Positions 1 to 26,643 of a stretch of DNA of 54,852 nucleotides are shown piece after piece; position 1 is the stretch's first letter, and every line of letters starts with the position of its first letter. Origin of the DNA: a virus. Lineage: Duplodnaviria > Caudoviricetes. The translations under genes and the position numbers were made by a program. The notes under the pieces were generated by a model. The model was not told the origin of the DNA and ran no database searches. It saw only the letters and a list, made by a program, of their open reading frames with translations. The DNA lies in the IMG/VR virus record IMGVR_UViG_3300030376_004261, positions 1 to 54,852 of that record. One strand, 5' to 3'.

Positions 1-70
1 GGGCGGTCTGCTGCAGCGGGAGGTACTGCTGAGAGCATCCGCTTGCGCTCTGAGCAAAATTCGGGCAGCC

Positions 71-323
71 ATACGTTGTGCTCCCCCTCTTTTTCATACG
101 CTTGCCCAAAACTAGAATGCTACAGTGTGTGTGCGTTTGCTGTATTACTAAAGGCATACGTCGAAGTGTATATTATAGCTCTATATAGTACTATAGTGCT
201 ATGTAGTATATACTGTATAGCACTTTCTTCTTTTATTGCTCTATTAAGCTTAGACTTAACATAAGCTTATAATATTGCTGTAAGGCCTAACGTATAGCTC
301 TATAGTATACGTTATGCTCCCCC
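71..323. repeat. Non-coding palindrome cluster bracketed by a 17-bp near-perfect direct repeat; possible terminus, origin or leader region
   Basis: ATACGTTRTGCTCCCCC at 71-87 and 307-323; palindromes or inverted repeats at 184-195, 195-224, 245-252, 261-270, 288-296/306-314; no credible ORF. Confidence 0.6.
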
Positions 324-396
324 GCGATTTTTAACGCTATGCTGGATGTAGTTTATAGCAGTGCTGTGTGCTGGGGTGAGAAAAACCGCTGGTACA

Positions 397-408
397 AGGC
401 TTTATATA
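397..408 (+). promoter_or_regulatory. Archaeal TATA-type promoter AGGCTTTATATA
   Basis: Identical 12-mer at 11395-11406; both lie upstream of gene runs. Confidence 0.7.
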
Positions 409-473
409 ATCTCAGCGTATTGTATTTTTTACTGTGCTCCTACTAAAAAATGGAGTGCTGGAAGTGAAAGAAA

Positions 474-860
474 ATGAAGCAAAACATAGATATAGATGCT
501 CTATCTGAAAAGCAATTGCTCTTATTAGAGAAGTTGCTGCAAAAGATGGGCAAGTCAGCAAAACCCCGAAGAAAAACCGGCAAGAAAACCTGCCGTGATT
601 TGAAGAAGCGATTCAATCCGCTAAGACCCCATCCCAGCGATGTTATACGCTGTATTGCATTTGAAAGAGCACAAGGTAATCCTAATGCTCAATCAGATGG
701 TTACAAGCGAGCAAAATCTGAAATGGTCGAGCGAATCAAAGAGTCCGAGCAAACAATGCGCCGTATGCATACTAACCTTGCTGAGGGTAGATTATACCAC
801 GGCACTACTGATATGAAAAATCGCTGGATAGGAACCAAACAGCTGGATGTGAAAATATGA
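474..860 (+). CDS. Hypothetical basic early protein
   Basis: 128 aa, first ORF after the promoter; ATGA overlap with next gene. Confidence 0.7.
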   Translation: MKQNIDIDALSEKQLLLLEKLLQKMGKSAKPRRKTGKKTCRDLKKRFNPLRPHPSDVIRCIAFERAQGNPNAQSDGYKRAKSEMVERIKESEQTMRRMHTNLAEGRLYHGTTDMKNRWIGTKQLDVKI

Positions 861-1132
861 GCAGCAAAGAGTGGAATGAAATGAGCGATGTAGAAAAGTG
901 GGAGCATTGTCTTGATAAATGGGAGCGAGAGAAATGGAATATGCTGCGTAAATATTTAACGCCGCAACAACTAGAAGCAGTGAGTAACGTTAACGGCATT
1001 GTAAGAAAGATGCGCTGGGGTTTAAAGAAAGAGCTGGAAAATGAACATACGCTGGCATTGTGTAAGATTGCCGAAGAATCATATGAGGCTGGATATAATG
1101 ACAGCACGGAGGATGAACACTATGCTGACTAA
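857..1132 (+). CDS. Hypothetical protein
   Basis: 91 aa, translationally coupled. Confidence 0.65.
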   Translation: MSSKEWNEMSDVEKWEHCLDKWEREKWNMLRKYLTPQQLEAVSNVNGIVRKMRWGLKKELENEHTLALCKIAEESYEAGYNDSTEDEHYAD

Positions 1133-1484
1133 AAAAGAAGCAGAACGGGTCAGAGATATGCTGGCTTATTTCAAACGGCTGGGTTATACCAAACCTATGC
1201 TCAATCTACATCCGACTGACGGCAAGATTAAAGAAGCAATTAAACAGTCAACTGCTGTGTGGTTTGAAAAGAAAGCAGATGATATACACGAGTTAGCAAT
1301 GGATGACTTTCTCAAAGCAATGTTTACAGTCTTAGCAGAGAAAAAGCTGCGAGACAAGATACTGCTGGAGATAAAGAAACTCGGCGGAGTAGGGTATAAA
1401 AGCGGTGGAATCCACGGCAAATATACTTATCACAGCGACACGAGTCGTGTAGACGGCAGACTAATCAGGAGGAAGCGAAGATGA
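1122..1484 (+). CDS. Hypothetical protein (start moved to MLTKKE)
   Basis: GGAGG SD upstream of ATG 1122; ATGA overlap with next ORF. Confidence 0.65.
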   Translation: MLTKKEAERVRDMLAYFKRLGYTKPMLNLHPTDGKIKEAIKQSTAVWFEKKADDIHELAMDDFLKAMFTVLAEKKLRDKILLEIKKLGGVGYKSGGIHGKYTYHSDTSRVDGRLIRRKRR

Positions 1485-1678
1485 CCGAAGTATTTTACAT
1501 TAAAGAATTTCCCGGCAATGCATATCGCTGGGTAGGCGAAGGTAACGATATGAATTTACAAACTGCTCCGTTGTTCAAAGACGGCAGTATTGACCACGAA
1601 CAATGGGGTGAAGTTAGCGAAATGGAAGAACCTCGCTGGTGGATGAGAGGTAAATACGGCGGAGGTTGTGATGATTAA
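1481..1678 (+). CDS. Hypothetical protein
   Basis: 65 aa, AGGAGG SD, coupled start. Confidence 0.6.
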   Translation: MTEVFYIKEFPGNAYRWVGEGNDMNLQTAPLFKDGSIDHEQWGEVSEMEEPRWWMRGKYGGGCDD

Positions 1679-1681
1679 AGC

Positions 1682-1760
1682 AGTCGATAGGATGGGAGTG
1701 GAGCAAAAATTTTCTTTATGCTTTTCACTTTCACAGTGCTCTATTCCTATCCCGACAAAT
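1682..1760 (+). ncRNA. Bulge-helix-bulge (BHB) closed RNA element 1
   Basis: Central helix GUCG 1683-86/CGAC 1753-56; 3-nt bulges AUA 1687-89 and AAA 1757-59; 16-bp inner stem 1690-1705/1737-1752 with 3 G-U pairs. Confidence 0.7.
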
Positions 1761-1773
1761 AAATTTTCCGTTA

Positions 1774-1836
1774 TGCCGCCGTGCACCCCGCAGCGTGAGA
1801 TTGCGCTGAGAAAAGAGAATTATGCTGCGGCACACA
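1774..1836 (+). ncRNA. Structured RNA element, degenerate BHB-like
   Basis: GUGC 1781-84/GCAC 1830-33; 4-nt bulge ACCC; 10-bp stem 1789-98/1820-29; followed by ACA; alternative pairings possible. Confidence 0.4.
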
Positions 1837-1856
1837 ACCAAATACTGCTCAAACAA

Positions 1857-1868
1857 GGTATTATATAT
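1857..1868 (+). promoter_or_regulatory. Probable TATA box upstream of the CxxC protein/peptidase operon
   Basis: GGTATTATATAT about 50 nt upstream of ATG 1913, resembling the 397 motif; AGGAG SD follows. Confidence 0.5.
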
Positions 1869-1912
1869 TCGGAGCGTGTTGGGAAAAATAAAAAGCTAGG
1901 AGAGAAAAAATA

Positions 1913-3622
1913 ATGCCGGAAGAAGAAACAAACAACAGCAATTGCCAATGCGAAGTCTGCTCGACTGACCTCGAAGAAGATGCCGTCATTGAGTCAACCC
2001 ATCAGTATGAGATTGTATGCTCTGACTGTCACAACAATATGGTGTGTTGTGATGGCTGCGGAGAAACTTTCACAAACGACAATGCACCTTACAGCACTTG
2101 TTCTGGAGAACCGGTGTGTTCTGATTGCTCTAACAATATGTCAAGCTGTGAGTATTGTGGCGAACTTATCAACACAGACCACGGCGAATATTATTATGAT
2201 GAAAACTACGGTGAGTATTGCTGTAGTGACCACGCTAATGACCAAGAGTTATCTTGGAGCTGTTCTCGTTGTGACCGCACTATGTATTTTACTGACGCTG
2301 GGACAGATTATGGAGACAGTGAACTTTGTTATGACTGCTACCACAATCCTGAGTCCAGCCTTGCAGATGATGTTCATCGCTGGCTTGACCACGATGTCGT
2401 GTCTGGTAGTTATCAATCGCTAAGTTCATCTGCTCAGTCACAACTGAATTGGTTTTACAGTTACAACAACGACAATTACGAACACAGCAACTTACAGATT
2501 CTCAAGGGCGGTTTGGAACTTAACAGCTTTGGTTATGCAGAAAGCTGTATCAAAGTCGCATCGCCGATTTACAAAGACTTTGCTTACATTCTCAAAGAGA
2601 TGATTGGTAGTGAATTGTTCTTTACACGTCACAAAAAATACGGCCTTTATCATCCTTTACGTCACTTGTTTCACAGCTGTATCAAATACTATGACCGGCA
2701 AAACGGTGACAGTTACAACTATCGTGGTGGCACAGCAATCGATTTCGAATCTGTTGTTACAGATTTGAACCGCTACAGTGTAGAAGGTTCTTACGCAGAA
2801 AAGATTACAGAAATGCTGCGCACTAACAAGACTGAAGATGGTGGTAATCTACGACGAGCAGTTACTAATGTCTTCAATCGTTCACTCAAAGAACGCTTTG
2901 ACTATTTCAACTTACGAAGAATGGATGACCAATTGGCAGCAAAACGATACAATCAGTATCTAACCAATGCTGTTGATGTCGAGTATCCACTGCAAATCGG
3001 TTTTGACCCAACAGACCTAAAAGATGTTGCCGAGTTCAATGCGAGTGTCGGCTCTTGTCAAGACCAATCTAATCGTGGTTCTTACAGCTTTGGCTTTGCA
3101 GATTTGCTGGTCAACCCTCACCTCTTTGCTCTTATCCGTGATGACAACAACGAAATCATTGGTCGCTCGGTTATCAGATTTTTCAAACACAACTGGGATG
3201 ATGACAGCGAACCTGTGTCTGTTGCTCCTTCACGTCTCTATTTAAAGCGAAACACTCAAGCAAAGAAAGAGTTCTATGTCCAGCTATTTAAACAGATAGA
3301 TGCTTGGGCATACACAGCATTTGATTCGCATCGGATGATTGCATATTCCAGCTCAAGACACGACTCGAGCGTTTACAGTTATATACGAGACAGTTTCAAC
3401 TTTACTGACCGCACGGTCAACAAATCGCTGCAGACTCAACGATGGTTTGCCTTCTGGCACACTAAACCTCGTGACAGTTCTGCCGACTATTCCTATTATC
3501 AAGACGAGGCACAACACACTAGAGTGGTTGGCATTCGCAACGGCGGACAAGGTGACTATGCTATGCAAGAAACTATGTCCGATTACGATTACAAAATTAT
3601 TGGAGCAAACAATGAAAACTAA
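1913..3622 (+). CDS. Protein with N-terminal tandem CxxC zinc ribbons and C-terminal possible PcfJ/GNAT-like domain
   Basis: About 8 CxxC-type motifs in first 145 aa; GSCQ motif then ALIRDDNNEIIGRSVIR, as in phage proteins encoded beside M20/M28 peptidases. Confidence 0.55.
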   Translation: MPEEETNNSNCQCEVCSTDLEEDAVIESTHQYEIVCSDCHNNMVCCDGCGETFTNDNAPYSTCSGEPVCSDCSNNMSSCEYCGELINTDHGEYYYDENYGEYCCSDHANDQELSWSCSRCDRTMYFTDAGTDYGDSELCYDCYHNPESSLADDVHRWLDHDVVSGSYQSLSSSAQSQLNWFYSYNNDNYEHSNLQILKGGLELNSFGYAESCIKVASPIYKDFAYILKEMIGSELFFTRHKKYGLYHPLRHLFHSCIKYYDRQNGDSYNYRGGTAIDFESVVTDLNRYSVEGSYAEKITEMLRTNKTEDGGNLRRAVTNVFNRSLKERFDYFNLRRMDDQLAAKRYNQYLTNAVDVEYPLQIGFDPTDLKDVAEFNASVGSCQDQSNRGSYSFGFADLLVNPHLFALIRDDNNEIIGRSVIRFFKHNWDDDSEPVSVAPSRLYLKRNTQAKKEFYVQLFKQIDAWAYTAFDSHRMIAYSSSRHDSSVYSYIRDSFNFTDRTVNKSLQTQRWFAFWHTKPRDSSADYSYYQDEAQHTRVVGIRNGGQGDYAMQETMSDYDYKIIGANNEN

Positions 3623-4913
3623 AACAGAAATGAAAACAGAAGCAAAAGACAGTCGTCTAACTGCTTTCCCTGTTTCTACTGCATCAATGGATGACAAGAC
3701 ACTGCTGAAATCTATGTTTGATATATTCAGTCCTAGTGGAGCAGAACATCCTATGATTGCATTTGTGACGAACTACCTCCGTGACAATGAGATAGAGCAT
3801 ACTGTAGACAGTATGGGTAATATCTATTTCACCAATCACATCGAGGGAGACCGCCGCATACTTCTCAACGCACATATGGACACAGTTGGTTCTGCTGTCC
3901 CTGAAGTTGTTGAGGAGCAGAAAGATGGTAAGACAGTATTCCGTTCAACTAACAATCAAGTTATTGGCGGTGACGACAAGTGTGGTGTATTCGCTGTCCT
4001 CAAGTGTATCACCAACAGAACGCTAGTTACCCCGCTGTCAGGGTTACTATGTGTAGCAGAAGAGACAGGACTAAACGGTAGTGACTTCGCTATGTCCAAT
4101 CACAAAGATATGTTCGATGACGTTGTGTTCAACATTACTATCGACCGCCGTGGTTGTGACGAAATCATCACCAAGAACAGTGACGTTCAACTGTGCTCTG
4201 ACAAACTTGATGCAAAGCTCGGTGAGTGGGGCAAAGACTTTGGTCTCAAGACATCCACCGGTTCTATATCAGATGTCAGCAATATTGTCAAAGAGTTACA
4301 AATCAATGGCATCAATCTATTCGCTGGTTACTACAATGCACACAGTGGTAGTGAGTATGTTGTATACGAAGAACTTATGCAAGCAGTTCAATTCATCGAG
4401 TATCTTGCACCAACGCTTCATACATACTTCAGTCTAAATCCTGATAACATCAAATACAAACCTACTGCTTCATACAGTTGGGGTGGCGGTGTTTACAGTT
4501 ATGCAAACTACGAAAGATATGATGCATACAGCCAAACAGAATACAATGGTATCAAATACTACAGTAACAGCTCTGGTGTTTACAGTAGTAAGACTGATGT
4601 AGACCTTGACGAAGCACTTGATATGTTCGATGCTATTATGGACCACATTGAAGATGCAACAGGTAGTATTGGTATGTTCGATGCATTACAAAGCAAAGGT
4701 CACGTCTATCTCAGTGCGTCTCACAAATCTATTGTGATTGATGAGGGATGGAGCGACTTCTTTGTGGAGTTATCAGAAGTCAATCAGTACATCGTAATCG
4801 GTAGTGGTGGCGACGGAACTGACGCAGTGATTTCAATCAAAGAAATGCAAGACTTCGAAGATGCTTTGAAGATTGCAGAACAAGCAAATGCTTTTGATAT
4901 GGAGGAAGAATAA
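3612..4913 (+). CDS. M20/M28-clan zinc peptidase with Tyr/Ser-rich linker and acidic C-terminal domain
   Basis: NAHMDTV, GGDDKCG, AEETG, IDRRG, GYYNAHSGSE motifs; start ATG 3612 after GGAG. Confidence 0.85.
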   Translation: MKTKTEMKTEAKDSRLTAFPVSTASMDDKTLLKSMFDIFSPSGAEHPMIAFVTNYLRDNEIEHTVDSMGNIYFTNHIEGDRRILLNAHMDTVGSAVPEVVEEQKDGKTVFRSTNNQVIGGDDKCGVFAVLKCITNRTLVTPLSGLLCVAEETGLNGSDFAMSNHKDMFDDVVFNITIDRRGCDEIITKNSDVQLCSDKLDAKLGEWGKDFGLKTSTGSISDVSNIVKELQINGINLFAGYYNAHSGSEYVVYEELMQAVQFIEYLAPTLHTYFSLNPDNIKYKPTASYSWGGGVYSYANYERYDAYSQTEYNGIKYYSNSSGVYSSKTDVDLDEALDMFDAIMDHIEDATGSIGMFDALQSKGHVYLSASHKSIVIDEGWSDFFVELSEVNQYIVIGSGGDGTDAVISIKEMQDFEDALKIAEQANAFDMEEE

Positions 4914-5230
4914 TGGTTCAAGTAAAGATAGAATGCCCTGATTGTGACGATGGCGGCAATGTTAGATTAGTTAATGAAACTAAACACAATCACGAATGTT
5001 ACAGATGTGCGTGCTGTTCTGGAGAGTTCTTTCCAGATGAAATGAAGCGAACAGAGTTACGATACTCTGTATTCACAAATGATGACGGTAGAACTGTGTT
5101 TATTGCTAACACAGAAAAACGCAAAGAAGTACTTCGTAAGCAACTTGAACACGCAAGAGCTGTCAAAAGAAAAAGAATCATTGGTACATCTCGCCGTGAA
5201 AAGAGTTTACTCAGGAGGATAAAAAAATAG
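4913..5230 (+). CDS. Zinc-ribbon protein with basic tail
   Basis: CPDC ... CACC; TAATG coupling. Confidence 0.7.
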   Translation: MVQVKIECPDCDDGGNVRLVNETKHNHECYRCACCSGEFFPDEMKRTELRYSVFTNDDGRTVFIANTEKRKEVLRKQLEHARAVKRKRIIGTSRREKSLLRRIKK

Positions 5231-5256
5231 TGCTCCGGTCTCCCCGCAGCACAACA

Positions 5257-5368
5257 CTCGCAGTGGACAGGAAGGAAGTCAAACACAGTTTGTTTAGTTT
5301 GTTTCGCTTTCAACATAGGGGTTTTGCAATTTCCCCTGTTCCTACGGCTTCCTTCCCCACAAATGGAG
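5257..5368 (+). ncRNA. BHB-closed RNA element 2
   Basis: Central GUGG 5263-66/CCAC 5357-60; bulges ACA 5267-69 and AAA 5361-63; 11-bp inner stem 5270-80/5346-56; outer CA/UG plus CUC/GAG; internal AGGGG/CCCCU hairpin. Confidence 0.72.
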
Positions 5369-5375
5369 AACACAA

Positions 5376-6089
5376 ATGACACAGACAATAGTAATCAACG
5401 CTGAGAAGTTCAAAGAAGACCGCGAAAGAGTTCATATTATCGCTGAGTTAGGTGATATAATGGATGACTTTTCAAGGCCTCACGCTTCGCTAGTGAGAAA
5501 CTGCACACGCAATCAGTTTACTGAGCAAGAACTTGAGATATTTCATCGTATACAAGGTGAAACCCGTTGTAGAAGATGGGTTGTGCTCTACAAAAAGAAC
5601 GGTCGGACAATCAAGTTCGAAACGCAAAGGTATGACAGCATCATACACACTAGATTGCTGGGTGGTCTTGATGACGATTCAATCACAGGAGATATTGTGC
5701 TGTATAAAACTGGTCAAAGACAAGGATGGCCTTATCGCACTGCTGATGAGCATTACAGCGGGTCACATCACTTTATTACAGGCAACGTGAATATTCCTGA
5801 GATATACTCATCAAACAGAGATTTAAGGCTTGATGATACTCACAATGAACTTTACCAAGCATATTGCGAAGAAGTATTTCCTGACTATCATTCTAGTTCG
5901 TTAAAACGAGCTATGAGCTACAGACTATATGTATTGATGCATATGACTTATGATGAATGGGTCAACACATTTAATGGTTCATTTAGTGAAGATGGTAGAC
6001 AAATTATGAGAGCAGGGCATCTTATATGGACTGACGGTGAAGTTACGAGAGATTGGCAAATTGGAGGTATGCCGCACCCAAGATTTTAA
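5376..6089 (+). CDS. Hypothetical protein
   Basis: 237 aa, GGAG SD, flanked by BHB elements 2 and 3. Confidence 0.75.
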   Translation: MTQTIVINAEKFKEDRERVHIIAELGDIMDDFSRPHASLVRNCTRNQFTEQELEIFHRIQGETRCRRWVVLYKKNGRTIKFETQRYDSIIHTRLLGGLDDDSITGDIVLYKTGQRQGWPYRTADEHYSGSHHFITGNVNIPEIYSSNRDLRLDDTHNELYQAYCEEVFPDYHSSSLKRAMSYRLYVLMHMTYDEWVNTFNGSFSEDGRQIMRAGHLIWTDGEVTRDWQIGGMPHPRF

Positions 6090-6103
6090 ATAAGATAACA
6101 ACG

Positions 6104-6214
6104 TAATGAAAGGTAGGTAGTGGAAACTGAATTCTGGCTGCGACAATCCTCTGTAGCAGCAATCGTAAGTAGGCATACACTAAATTTTGCGTATCCGCTA
6201 CCTGCCCATTACAA
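6104..6214 (+). ncRNA. BHB-closed RNA element 3
   Basis: Central AAUG 6105-08/CAUU 6207-10; bulges AAA 6109-11 and ACA 6211-13; 13-bp inner stem 6112-24/6194-6206; internal GCUGC/GCAGC hairpin. Confidence 0.65.
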
Positions 6215-6223
6215 GGACAAAAT

Positions 6224-6511
6224 ATGAACGAACACGAAACAAAACTGTTTGAATTGCTATTAGCTGAAATATTCAAGAACAAAATTGTGCTTGAAGAACT
6301 TGAAGCTGACTTATTTGGTGGAGACACCTTACTTGACATTCCTGCTGGTGTTGATTTGAAAAACAAATTAATAGGTGAGTATGAGAAAGATGACGGCAAA
6401 TCTTTTGAATATGGCCCTATATTATTTGATGAATCAAAACTACAACCATCGGCTATCAGGGAAAACGTAATGGAAGGAAATAGAAATGACAACAAAAGAA
6501 AAAAAGAATAA
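6224..6511 (+). CDS. Hypothetical acidic protein
   Basis: 95 aa in co-oriented run. Confidence 0.65.
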   Translation: MNEHETKLFELLLAEIFKNKIVLEELEADLFGGDTLLDIPAGVDLKNKLIGEYEKDDGKSFEYGPILFDESKLQPSAIRENVMEGNRNDNKRKKE

Positions 6512-6746
6512 CATAAAGAAAATGCTAAAACTCACAGGAGACTACGGCAAAATACAAAGACAAAGTGTGCGTGATGAAAACGTTGAGTTTTTAGAGAACG
6601 TAAAATTCGGGTTGTATGGTTTATCAGCAGAGATAAATGAAATGCAAAAACAAATTGATTTTTACATTCGTAGACAAAAAAAAAGTAATGACAATGTTAC
6701 TTTAGAAGAATTGAAGGAGAGTTACAGCATCTGCGATAATGACTGA
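6486..6746 (+). CDS. Hypothetical protein
   Basis: 86 aa, overlapping run. Confidence 0.6.
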   Translation: MTTKEKKNNIKKMLKLTGDYGKIQRQSVRDENVEFLENVKFGLYGLSAEINEMQKQIDFYIRRQKKSNDNVTLEELKESYSICDND

Positions 6747-12325: not shown

Positions 12326-13701
12326 GCCAGTTTGAACTTACCGATTTAGTTAGGTATTTTCATAACGTAAGGAATGAAAAGGGCGAACACGTCCCTATCA
12401 TAGGTGAAGACAAACTTGCTGTAACTGCAGCACTGTCTTACTTACTAGAAGACACTAATTTTATGATTAATGCATACAGTGGTACAGGTAAAACTGTTAT
12501 TATGAATGCTGTGTTTAACTTACTAGAAGGTACAGGTATACCATATACTGTTGTAGAACAAATGTCTGAAACAGCACTGTGGTATGATATGGATAGAATA
12601 AATTCATCAAGATTCCTTGCAATACCTGAAGCACAGAAATGTCCAGAAGCTATTATTGAGATATTAAAAACGTGGGCAGATGATAGGGCAGCAGTTAGAA
12701 AGAGAACTGATGTGACCATACAAGATGTTAGAGAACAAGTGTTACACCCTAAGTTTGTGTTTGTCTGTAAGGCAGTAGAGAATAAAAGAGGTGATGCATT
12801 CTTAGATGCTGAGTTAGAACGTAGGTATATGGTAACACATACAAATCCTACAGTAAAACAAACTGAAGATGTTATTAAGTACAAACTAGATACTTTTGCT
12901 AAACCACACGAAGATTTAGTTACTATGGAAGATGAAGAGATAGAAGCACTAAAAAAACATATTGCTAATTGTATTATAGAAAGGGATGACAGTAAGGGTG
13001 TTAAAGTAAGAAATCCTTGTGCTCCTTTCTTGTATGATTTGATACCAACATTATTTCCTATAGCTAGAAGTAAAGTTCATTACTATCTTAAGTTAATCAA
13101 TGCAGTTGCTAGATTCTACCCCGGCGAGTTAGTTAGAGTAGAAAGAGACGGTGTGCAGTATGGGTTGATAACACCTAAACATAATTGGCTAGCAACACAA
13201 ATTTACATTGACACGTTTGTGACAGAATGTTTACAGATGCCATCACACGGTACAGATATACTTAAACTGATACCTGACACAGAGATAGATAAGTTTGGTA
13301 TGGTTACAGCAGAAGTAATCAAGATGACTAAGAAAGAGATACAACAAGCTGCACGTCAAGCTGGGTTGCCGTTTGCTCAGAAGAACATCAATCCTTTACT
13401 TACGTCTTTAGTTATGTTAGGATTTTTAGAACAAGAAGAAGAAGATAAGAAAATAACATACTTTAAGTCAGCATTAGTAAGAGAACCAAGTACAAAAATT
13501 GATTGGGGAGAGTTGATGCGTGGTACTGCTGATTTGATGAGACAAACTTGGCCAGAAATTGCAGAAGAATACATTCGTAACTACTGCACAGAAGTTGAAG
13601 TAATTAACCCATTTGATAATACAAAACACGTTTTAGCTGCTGATTTACCAGCAGTAGAAGTTAAGACTGACGATATAGACTACGGTGGTTGGTATGAATA
13701 A
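12322..13701 (+). CDS. AAA+ ATPase, probable MCM-related replicative helicase with C-terminal winged helix
   Basis: Walker A AYSGTGKT; atypical Walker B LAIPE; LDAELERR Arg-finger region; replication context. Confidence 0.65.
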   Translation: MSQFELTDLVRYFHNVRNEKGEHVPIIGEDKLAVTAALSYLLEDTNFMINAYSGTGKTVIMNAVFNLLEGTGIPYTVVEQMSETALWYDMDRINSSRFLAIPEAQKCPEAIIEILKTWADDRAAVRKRTDVTIQDVREQVLHPKFVFVCKAVENKRGDAFLDAELERRYMVTHTNPTVKQTEDVIKYKLDTFAKPHEDLVTMEDEEIEALKKHIANCIIERDDSKGVKVRNPCAPFLYDLIPTLFPIARSKVHYYLKLINAVARFYPGELVRVERDGVQYGLITPKHNWLATQIYIDTFVTECLQMPSHGTDILKLIPDTEIDKFGMVTAEVIKMTKKEIQQAARQAGLPFAQKNINPLLTSLVMLGFLEQEEEDKKITYFKSALVREPSTKIDWGELMRGTADLMRQTWPEIAEEYIRNYCTEVEVINPFDNTKHVLAADLPAVEVKTDDIDYGGWYE

Positions 13702-25636: not shown

Positions 25637-26643
25637 GATAGTATAGGTGGTTGTTTGTTTATAGTTAACTGTAATTTATAATCGTTAGAACCTAAAGATA
25701 AAGATTTACCAATAATTCTAAAGTTTCCAGACACGTCTACATCATCACTAATTATTTCAACAACGTCACCTTCATTTAAGTAAACACCGTCAGCTGTTTC
25801 TATAGTGTATTCATATTGATTTTTTTTATTTGCTTCGAATATCTTGTATCCAAACTCTACGCACTCAGCTTTTGATTTTAATTGTTTATTATCAACACTC
25901 AAAGGATTTTCTCCATAAGAATCAATAAACGAATCGTGTTTGTAAGTCCCAAAAGAGTTATCACCTTTTACATTAATTATAGTGGGTATTTTACGATTGT
26001 TGACTTTAAAAGTTATAATATTATCATAACTATATACTTTTATTGGCGTAGCATTATCTAAATCAGCAGCTAAATCAATTTTTATTTGAGTTTTTGAACC
26101 ATCGTCAAATCTTCTGACGTAATTTTCTCTAGTAACAGTTGAGTTATAATTTACAACTTGTTTCAAAATACTTTTTATAGCATCTAAAATGATTACATCT
26201 CCTCTCATTTTGTCTGGATTTATTATGGGATTAGTGTCACCAATATAATCTGTACCAACCACACTATCTAAATTAGCAAGTTGTATTAATTTTTTTATTG
26301 CATTACCTCCACTCAACCCGTCAACATTAGATTCATCAGTAAGCATAACCTTTGCTTTGTCGTGACCAGTTAAAAAACCAAAATTATCAACAGCAGTAAA
26401 TCTAAGCCCTATATTATCAACTATATCACTGTTAACAATCCTACCTCTAAATATAGGAGTAGCATCAGATATATCAAAAAACAAAACAACTTCTTTATTC
26501 CAATACTTACGATATGACAGTTCGGGTTGAGTTACAGTAAAGTTTAATTGTGCAGCAGTATTATTGCCACGCACTTTTAAATCACAAGAAACAAATTCAG
26601 TCAACGTGTTATCAATTAATAATTTAGGAGTATGTGTTACCAT
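25621..26643 (-). CDS. Tail tip/baseplate hub-like protein
   Basis: IFRGRI and LNEGDVVEI...GNFRII...LTI pattern; last gene of tail operon. Confidence 0.6.
   Translation of the reverse strand: MVTHTPKLLIDNTLTEFVSCDLKVRGNNTAAQLNFTVTQPELSYRKYWNKEVVLFFDISDATPIFRGRIVNSDIVDNIGLRFTAVDNFGFLTGHDKAKVMLTDESNVDGLSGGNAIKKLIQLANLDSVVGTDYIGDTNPIINPDKMRGDVIILDAIKSILKQVVNYNSTVTRENYVRRFDDGSKTQIKIDLAADLDNATPIKVYSYDNIITFKVNNRKIPTIINVKGDNSFGTYKHDSFIDSYGENPLSVDNKQLKSKAECVEFGYKIFEANKKNQYEYTIETADGVYLNEGDVVEIISDDVDVSGNFRIIGKSLSLGSNDYKLQLTINKQPPILSQFLL

Follow-up and report, generated by a model that had tools for sequence, protein, structure and literature searches.

Three short RNA elements, here called E1, E2, and E3, are found in the spacers between early genes in a virus record of 54,852 bp (IMG/VR IMGVR_UViG_3300030376_004261; this whole stretch of DNA is referred to below as the window). 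All three are on the + strand, resemble one another, and keep their fold, with covarying base pairs, beside the same genes in related viruses. Comparison of these sequences indicates that E1–E3 are a new conserved structured RNA family, whatever their mechanism. An earlier note, made from the window alone, had proposed that they are bulge-helix-bulge (BHB) elements cut by the archaeal tRNA-splicing endonuclease EndA. We regard them as putative EndA substrates and consider this the best single mechanism, held tentatively and with slightly less than even confidence, the cleavage itself being a prediction. The features of the three elements are as follows.

E1, 1682..1760, + strand: outer pair A1682-U1760; helix GTCG 1683-1686 / CGAC 1753-1756
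E1 bulges, + strand: 5' AUA 1687-1689; 3' AAA 1757-1759
E1 inner stem, + strand: 16 bp, 1690-1705/1737-1752, with a 31-nt U-rich loop
E1 predicted EndA cuts: between 1688 and 1689 and between 1758 and 1759
E2, 5257..5368, + strand: outer helix CUC-g-CA 5257-5262 / UGGAG 5364-5368
E2 4-bp helix, + strand: GTGG 5263-5266 / CCAC 5357-5360
E2 bulges, + strand: 5' ACA 5267-5269; 3' AAA 5361-5363
E2 inner stem: 11 bp, 5270-5280/5346-5356, with a 65-nt interior that holds a conserved hairpin, GGG-UUUUGCAAUUU-CCC
E2 predicted EndA cuts: between 5268 and 5269 and between 5362 and 5363
E3, 6104..6214, + strand: helix AATG 6105-6108 / CATT 6207-6210; possible single closing pair U6104-A6214
E3 bulges, + strand: 5' AAA 6109-6111; 3' triplet ACA 6211-6213
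E3 inner stem, + strand: 13 bp, 6112-6124/6194-6206, with a 69-nt interior
E3 alternative fold: 6-bp helix 6103-6108/6207-6212, with no 3' bulge
E3 predicted EndA cuts: between 6110 and 6111 and between 6212 and 6213

The helices, the A-N-A bulges, and the mismatch-free inner stems of 11–16 bp opening GG...CC that the earlier note had described were all found in the sequence, and each of the six wobble pairs (3+1+2) is G-U when read on the + strand. Unconstrained minimum free energy (MFE) folding recovers the 4-bp helix, the 5' bulge, and the stem in each of E1, E2, and E3. Fold z-scores on the + strand were −5.0, −2.2, and −4.4, respectively, against −1.6, −0.9, and −1.75 on the − strand. As the wobbles are G-U on the + strand alone, and shuffled sequence folds as well as the − strand does, a palindrome acting in DNA is disfavored. 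The MFE structure of E2, alone in the window, also closes the 3' bulge, through CA/UG plus CUC/GAG with one bulged G, and that of E1 has one closing pair only. The elements had been described as differing in sequence and sharing one fold; the fold is indeed common, but the sequences are related as well. E1 and E2 have the 5' consensus GCAGTSGAYAGGAWGGRAGT in common, and from their alignment all three are paralogues of one RNA family with a common 5' arm.

Related loci, referred to here by L numbers, were found via two neighboring proteins, of 237 aa (5376-6089) and 569 aa (1913-3622). They comprised 13 metagenome loci (100–56% identity), 2 IMG/VR loci, and 8 distant IMG/VR loci (36–47%), some of these last from complete records of 72–76 kb. 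A covariance model, R1, built from a 14-element alignment, finds exactly E1, E2, and E3 in the window and nothing on the − strand at E ≤ 1. With filters off, R1 places a sense-strand homologue directly upstream of the 569-aa gene in L178 and in L180–L185; the corresponding homologue in L179 was confirmed by script, and L184 carries all three copies. Related whole records hold zero to three copies each, all on the sense strand in the early region, and R1 had no match in 80 capsid-gene loci of related contigs, 681 kb in total. On these counts of three copies in the window, none in the 80 capsid loci, and at most three per related record, a dispersed repeat or miniature inverted-repeat transposable element was rejected. 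Rfam 15 gave no match at the gathering threshold over the entire window. At E ≤ 5 over positions 1–6400, it returned a single sub-threshold plant microRNA model (21 bits, cut-off 88, E 0.95), which we attribute to chance. Separately, a weak E3-like match (E 0.17) was seen at L180:11869-11958, about 900 nt after a tRNA-Lys gene; its inner stem, GGUAGAGAGUAG, resembles that of E3 and has no adjoining 4-bp helix.

Orthologues hold the fold while the identity of the flanking proteins drops to 36–58%, and the stem bases are conserved far above the neighboring proteins. The 4-bp helix, 3-nt bulge, and stem are present in 20/20 orthologue instances and in 8/9 distant instances, the exception being E3 of L184. 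The 5' bulge is AUA, ACA, or AAA in all instances, and the inner helix ranges from 10 to 17 bp across the family. Within the 14-element alignment, the 4-bp helix is paired in 14/14 elements, with changes on both sides in three of its four pairs, and pairing is complete at all 11 inner positions common to the alignment, seven of which have changes on both sides. The observed score was reached by 0 of 500 shuffles, and slid registers pair at 34–50%. When relatives at 36–47% protein identity are included (21 distinct rows), pairing is 98.7% in the 4-bp helix and 100% in the inner stem, and both sides have changed in 3/4 helix pairs and 8/11 inner-stem pairs.

The individual elements show the same pattern. 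E1 orthologues in L001, L002, L005, L009, L015, and L016 keep every pair, and those of L016 and L015 differ from the window by one-sided G-U/A-U/G-C switches that break none. The base of E2 is identical in all seven distinct orthologues, down to 56% protein identity, with ACA or AUA as the bulge; in its interior hairpin, the loop is kept and the stem covaries. For E3, compensatory changes convert two G-C pairs to A-U in L016 and the helix AAUG/CAUU to AGUG/CACU in L010. The inner-stem 5' arm, GGRAWGRAGUG, and the A-N-A bulges are conserved in paralogues and distant relatives alike. The interiors are the least conserved part: that of E3 is largely replaced between lineages, and E1 of the window has no interior hairpin. 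An E3 copy at L015:4618-4710 carries a 4-nt deletion in the 5' arm that shortens the stem, which may be an assembly error or a decaying copy.

Beyond the 3' bulge, an outer helix is evident in the relatives. It reaches 5 bp (GAAC/GUUC plus a wobble pair) in L181 and L179, 3 bp in L183 and in E2 of L184, and 2 bp in L178, L180, and E1 of L184. A complete BHB is present in the unconstrained MFE structures of E2 of the window, E2 of L184 (outer helix CCA/UGG), and E1 of L181. The number of nucleotides left unpaired after the 4-bp helix was varied over 15 non-redundant instances. With 3 nt, one or more stacked pairs form in 13 of them and two or more in 8, making 26 bp altogether; with 0, 1, 2, 4, 5, 6, or 7 nt unpaired, the same instances give totals of 4, 2, 2, 4, 5, 9, and 2 bp. 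Counts for single outer pairs were taken over 19 rows of a model-based alignment of the 21 distinct rows, which was not fitted to the outer helix because the structure in the model lacks one. The first pair is kept in 17/19 rows (AU 11, UA 3, CG 2, UG 1) and the second in 13/19 (CG 7, AU 3, GC 1, UA 1, UG 1). Since these pairs are kept, covary, and are specific to a 3-nt gap, E1 and E2 fit the 3-4-3 geometry of an EndA substrate and look like hBHBh' motifs whose outer helix is short and variable. The BHB geometry claimed in the earlier note is thus borne out for E1 and E2 by covarying helices and by a 3-nt-specific outer helix in relatives, but E3 fits poorly. By sequence comparison, E3 is the weakest BHB fit and the exception to the 3-4-3 geometry, with U-A as its closing pair in the window lineage.

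The conserved core can be written as an hBHBh' motif consisting of an outer helix of 0–5 bp, a 3-nt A-rich 3' bulge, a 4-bp helix, an A-N-A 5' bulge, and an inner helix of 10–17 bp. In the mechanism that we propose, host EndA would cut both bulges within a polycistronic early transcript, freeing inner stem-loops of 70, 94, and 102 nt with 5'-OH and cyclic-phosphate ends, which RtcB could circularize. After cutting, the downstream message of E2 and of E3 would start 1–2 nt before its Shine-Dalgarno sequence. Alternatively, the exons would be re-joined, which would remove a bulky structure next to the Shine-Dalgarno sequence. The sequences themselves establish the structure, strand, conservation, covariation, paralogy, and position of the elements, whereas an archaeal host, EndA cleavage, ligation, and an effect on expression are inferred. 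EndA, RtcB, and RNase III are not encoded in the window, a record estimated by CheckV to be 78% complete, and a host enzyme would therefore be required. An RNA run from the same sample yielded one unrelated 34-nt piece over positions 1400–6600, leaving the elements uncovered, and is uninformative on expression.

A 3-4-3 arrangement with flanking helices is given as the defining archaeal EndA substrate in PMC7714728 and PMC6379350. In the elements, each bulge lies 3' of its strand of the central helix, as in pre-tRNAs. The note had drawn its comparison with cbf5 and rRNA, which is apt, and HVO_1309 of Haloferax volcanii, with a BHB intron in its 5' untranslated region, comes closer still. According to PMC7714728, this 46-nt intron is removed from a 192-nt 5' untranslated region and occurs as a circle, EndA cleaves the site in vitro, and repression of endA lowers expression of the gene. 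The elements are likewise placed in the leader or spacer of a longer transcript, and the part that would be excised is in the same size range as in the known archaeal systems. With the known archaeal BHBs (tRNA introns, pre-rRNA stems, the cbf5 pre-mRNA intron, and HVO_1309) they share two 3-nt bulges on opposite strands, the 4-bp helix between them, and the flanking helices, with the outer one marginal in the window and mostly failing in E3. They differ in being viral and intercistronic, in occurring as three paralogous copies per genome without a tRNA or rRNA body, in the 0–5 bp of the outer helix, in the conservation of stem sequence and A-N-A bulges, and in that their cleavage is predicted here. 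Relaxed BHB motifs (hBH, HBh', BHL) of Crenarchaeota, Thaumarchaeota, Nanoarchaeota, and ARMAN are described in PMC6379350 and PMC4090602 as cut by (alpha-beta)2 or epsilon2 EndA. One flanking helix is weak or missing in these motifs, as in the elements; their relaxed side, however, usually lies within a tRNA body that aids recognition, whereas the elements keep 3 nt per bulge and have only the outer helix shortened. The same sources assign a broad-specificity (alpha-beta)2 EndA to Thaumarchaeota and stricter alpha4 or alpha'2 types to Euryarchaeota. The short outer helices would accordingly suit a thaumarchaeal host better, given the broad specificity of that enzyme. No description of BHB motifs in archaeal-virus transcripts was found in the full-text literature searched, which holds few subscription journals.

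Several points weigh against EndA processing, and others weigh against, or are neutral on, the archaeal host that it needs. The outer helix, which the note had already called weak, is marginal in the window, with 1 bp in E1, 2 bp in E2 (5 with the bulged G), and 1 bp in E3, and in the 19 rows the third outer pair is kept in only 5. Euryarchaeal EndA types demand strict BHB motifs. The MFE structure of E3 is the 6-bp helix, GUAAUG/CAUUAC, with no 3' bulge; E3 of L010 has CGC for A-N-A and no closing pair, and E3 of L184 has a 3-bp helix. Retention of the stem with loss of the 3-4-3 geometry, named in the note as a test of the idea, is thus partly seen in homologues of E3 (L010, L184) and not in those of E1 or E2. 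A BHB descriptor (4-bp helix, 3+3 bulges, inner stem of at least 11 bp, at least one outer pair) has 5 matches in the window, against a mean of 3.9 (range 1–10) in 36 dinucleotide shuffles. The geometry by itself is no rarer than chance expectation, and support therefore rests on conservation. RAGUG in the stem is conserved, and EndA recognition needs no stem sequence, which indicates another or an additional ligand. With regard to the host, the best phage-record matches of the family B DNA polymerase (PolB) are Salinibacter and cyanobacterial phages (21–23% identity). Relatives of the ribonucleotide reductase in species genomes are mostly Patescibacteria, at ~50% identity, a result that we judge uninformative for host. 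PCNA and PriS were found in none of five related records, and a strong GGAG-type Shine-Dalgarno sequence precedes almost every gene.

We consider the virus to be likely, at roughly four chances in five, a marine tailed virus of an archaeon, judging from its genes. The window has a GC content of 36.8%. Its first 25.5 kb are filled by + strand genes, including those for a DNA methylase, a RecU-like nuclease, PolB, glycosyltransferases, and a class II ribonucleotide reductase, and the remainder consists of − strand structural genes, including those for the tape-measure and major capsid proteins. Among 50,697 phage records, the capsid protein matches eight, all of them Haloarcula tailed viruses (HVTV-1, HCTV-5, HCTV-1, and relatives; 24–28% identity over 93% of its length), and no bacterial phage. 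The nearest solved structures to PolB in the PDB are archaeal PolB (E 4e-21), followed by Pol delta and E. coli Pol II (E 4e-8). These two proteins make an archaeal host plausible, the capsid matching only Haloarcula tailed viruses and PolB lying nearest archaeal PolB structures. The capsid family has 320 marine relatives. PMC8651126 describes the HVTV-1 capsid clade as made up mostly of marine homologues, among which are scattered viruses of Marine Group II, marine Thaumarchaeota, and Thermoplasmata; few bacterial sequences were retrieved. Positions 1–8 kb of the window had no DNA match in the phage collection, two replication-region proteins had no PDB sequence match, and the tRNA-Lys of relatives had no match among phage records.

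The main rival to EndA processing is that the elements are sites bound by a viral or host protein, or hairpins that stabilize the mRNA or modulate its translation, with the bulge and 4-bp helix as the recognition feature and no EndA involved. We think this unlikely as the sole explanation, although the two functions are not mutually exclusive. Conservation of GGRAWGRAGUG and of the A-N-A bulges exceeds the needs of a purely geometric enzyme; sub-hairpins and a YUCCU motif are conserved in the interiors; the outer helix is weak; and the stem bases of E2 and E3 end 1–4 nt before the GGAG/AGGA of the downstream gene. In the window, the E2 outer helix includes and pairs with the GGAG Shine-Dalgarno sequence of the gene at 5376, and the AAGGA of the gene at 6224 comes after E3. 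Protein binding nevertheless leaves unexplained why a gap of exactly 3 nt on the 3' side is closed by covarying pairs, and scanning 10 small early proteins revealed no RNA-binding domain. We found no described motif other than the EndA substrate, and no known protein-binding motif, with 3-4-3 symmetry. A K-turn, the binding site of L7Ae, also has a 3-nt bulge between two helices and is defined by tandem sheared G-A pairs after that bulge. In the elements, the bulge precedes GG/CC pairs; the two pairs after it are G-C in 20/20 and 19/20 rows, the required G-A pairs are absent, and the K-turn was rejected. An H/ACA guide RNA resembles the elements in that an A-N-A triplet follows the 3' base of the hairpin, and was rejected in the absence of a pseudouridylation pocket at the right distance. 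A C/D box was rejected as well, the GUGAUGA before E1 not being conserved in L016. It is improbable, in our estimate, that the elements are stand-alone small RNA genes whose closing stem only defines and protects the ends and whose maturation depends on nucleases other than EndA. Conserved motifs and a covarying interior hairpin, absence of the family from Rfam, and the tRNA-Lys beside E1 in relatives, which makes the region rich in RNA genes, are what such genes would lead one to expect. Yet the stem base with its bulges is the conserved part rather than the interiors, and no promoter or terminator is evident for each element.

A bacterial host would bring in a different enzyme: the hairpins would be RNase III (or RNase E-protecting) sites at which the message is processed between early genes, as happens in T7. 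T7 sites are likewise sense-strand hairpins between early cistrons, and the elements, like them, could split a message and leave protective hairpins. The intercistronic position, the total stem length of 15–20 bp, the strong use of Shine-Dalgarno sequences, and the bacterial-phage or bacterial nearest relatives of PolB and the ribonucleotide reductase in some searches all agree with this explanation. We nonetheless rate it as very improbable. The capsid protein matches archaeal tailed viruses only, PolB is nearest to archaeal enzymes in the PDB, sigma-70-like sites occur at chance frequency (68, where shuffles give 65.2 ± 8.2, in itself uninformative), the stems lack a following U-tract, and a search for an RNase III domain in the window gave nothing. 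In RNase III sites the lower stem is longer and there is an internal loop, those of T7 comprising two stems of ~10 bp around the loop, whereas the elements have a 4-bp base with a 3-nt bulge, and their host is probably an archaeon. To our knowledge, most archaea lack RNase III.

We give the lowest probability of all, a very slight one, to a coding or DNA-level feature, in which E1 would belong to a small protein gene (1671-1913, 80-aa product) and inverted repeats would act in DNA. The note had placed the elements in intergenic gaps, which holds for E3, closed in all frames, but an open reading frame spans each of gaps 1 and 2. The frame at 1671-1913 has an ATG overlapping the upstream stop, passes through E1, and ends at the TAATG of the next gene. 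An ATG lies 3–13 nt before the E1 helix in 9/9 instances, the frame is open to the next gene in 8/9, and its indels among close orthologues measure 3, 33, and 6 nt. We do not regard it as a gene, since it runs through tRNA-Lys in L183 and L184 and its substitutions are mostly non-synonymous; in L180, moreover, the frame relative to the helix differs. By these comparisons, it is probably not coding. The frame that spans E2 is broken in 3/7 orthologues. Terminators were rejected: there is no U-tract, and of 19 terminator-like sites in the window (9.6 ± 3.5 in shuffles), mostly antisense inside genes, none is at an element. Splicing that fuses reading frames was rejected too, as removal of 70, 94, or 102 nt joins no flanking genes in frame.

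The surroundings of the elements are themselves conserved, the following features being those nearest to them.

237-aa gene, 5376..6089, + strand: flanked by E2 on one side and E3 on the other wherever a locus extends past both ends, L184 included
569-aa Cys-rich gene, 1913..3622, + strand: preceded by an E1-type element upstream of its homologue in all relatives examined
Small GC-rich hairpin, 5230..5252, + strand: GUGCU-C-CGG-loop-CCG-C-AGCAC, between the stop of the gene at 4913-5230 and E2

CxxC pairs are frequent in the first 140 residues of the 569-aa protein, which matches nothing in Pfam or PHROG and is conserved at 36–91% identity in marine virus contigs as long as 77 kb. A conserved TATA-like sequence precedes the ATG of the 569-aa gene by ~45–60 nt, at 1857-1872 in the window (GGTATTATATATT) and as GAGTCTTTATATA in relatives (L179, L180, L181, and L182), and may be an archaeal-type promoter. 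The hairpin at 5230-5252 is kept in L013–L016 with loop changes and recurs after E1 and after E3 in L184. A related conserved GC-rich motif, of the form GCTCCGG...CCCCGCAGC, is present after E1 at 1775-1795. The hairpin and motif are associated with the elements, and it is uncertain whether they belong to them. CCCCGC occurs 8 times against 2.7 expected in this AT-rich genome, with 3 of the 8 in early non-coding DNA. The note had also stated that no tRNA body flanks the sites. This is true of the window, where ARAGORN found no tRNA, but relatives encode a 78-nt tRNA-Lys(CUU) with an encoded CCA end (L183:6887-6964, L185:6887-6964, L184:2465-2542, and L180:10890-10967), which in L183, L185, and L184 lies ~60–120 nt downstream of E1. 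Compared with these relatives, the window appears to have lost the tRNA-Lys gene; at the spot where relatives have it, L002 and L009 carry an inserted small Cys-rich gene.

Elsewhere in the window, the descriptor scans picked out other long stems with a 3-nt bulge, at 26372-26447 on the − strand (17 bp) and at 13287-13425 on the + strand (13 bp), both within coding regions. The left end, 1-473, is non-coding and dense in palindromes built on TATAG/GCTC; it also holds GTGCTCC...T-run motifs (at 78, 313, and 434) and may be a promoter/operator region or an origin.

A broader form of the EndA proposal, to which we give somewhat less credence than to the identification of E1–E3 as substrates, is that EndA and RtcB are recruited throughout a widespread family of tailed viruses of marine archaea for the maturation of early polycistronic mRNA at BHB motifs between its cistrons, with conserved structured RNAs of 70–160 nt released as stable, functional circles. 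EndA and RtcB would then have a role like that of RNase III for T7, and the circles might titrate a host factor or regulate translation. The EndA idea is directly testable, as the elements are short, the predicted cuts are exact, and Haloferax protocols for EndA assays and circular RNA sequencing exist (PMC7714728). If it is true, this would be the first virus, within the literature searched, to use the archaeal tRNA-splicing pathway on its own mRNA. The processing of mRNA operons would join the short list of non-tRNA EndA substrates (rRNA, cbf5, and HVO_1309), and archaea would have a natural source of virus-made circular RNAs. Regardless of mechanism, the elements represent a new RNA family that could enter RNA databases and could mark the early region of an abundant, uncultured group of marine viruses.

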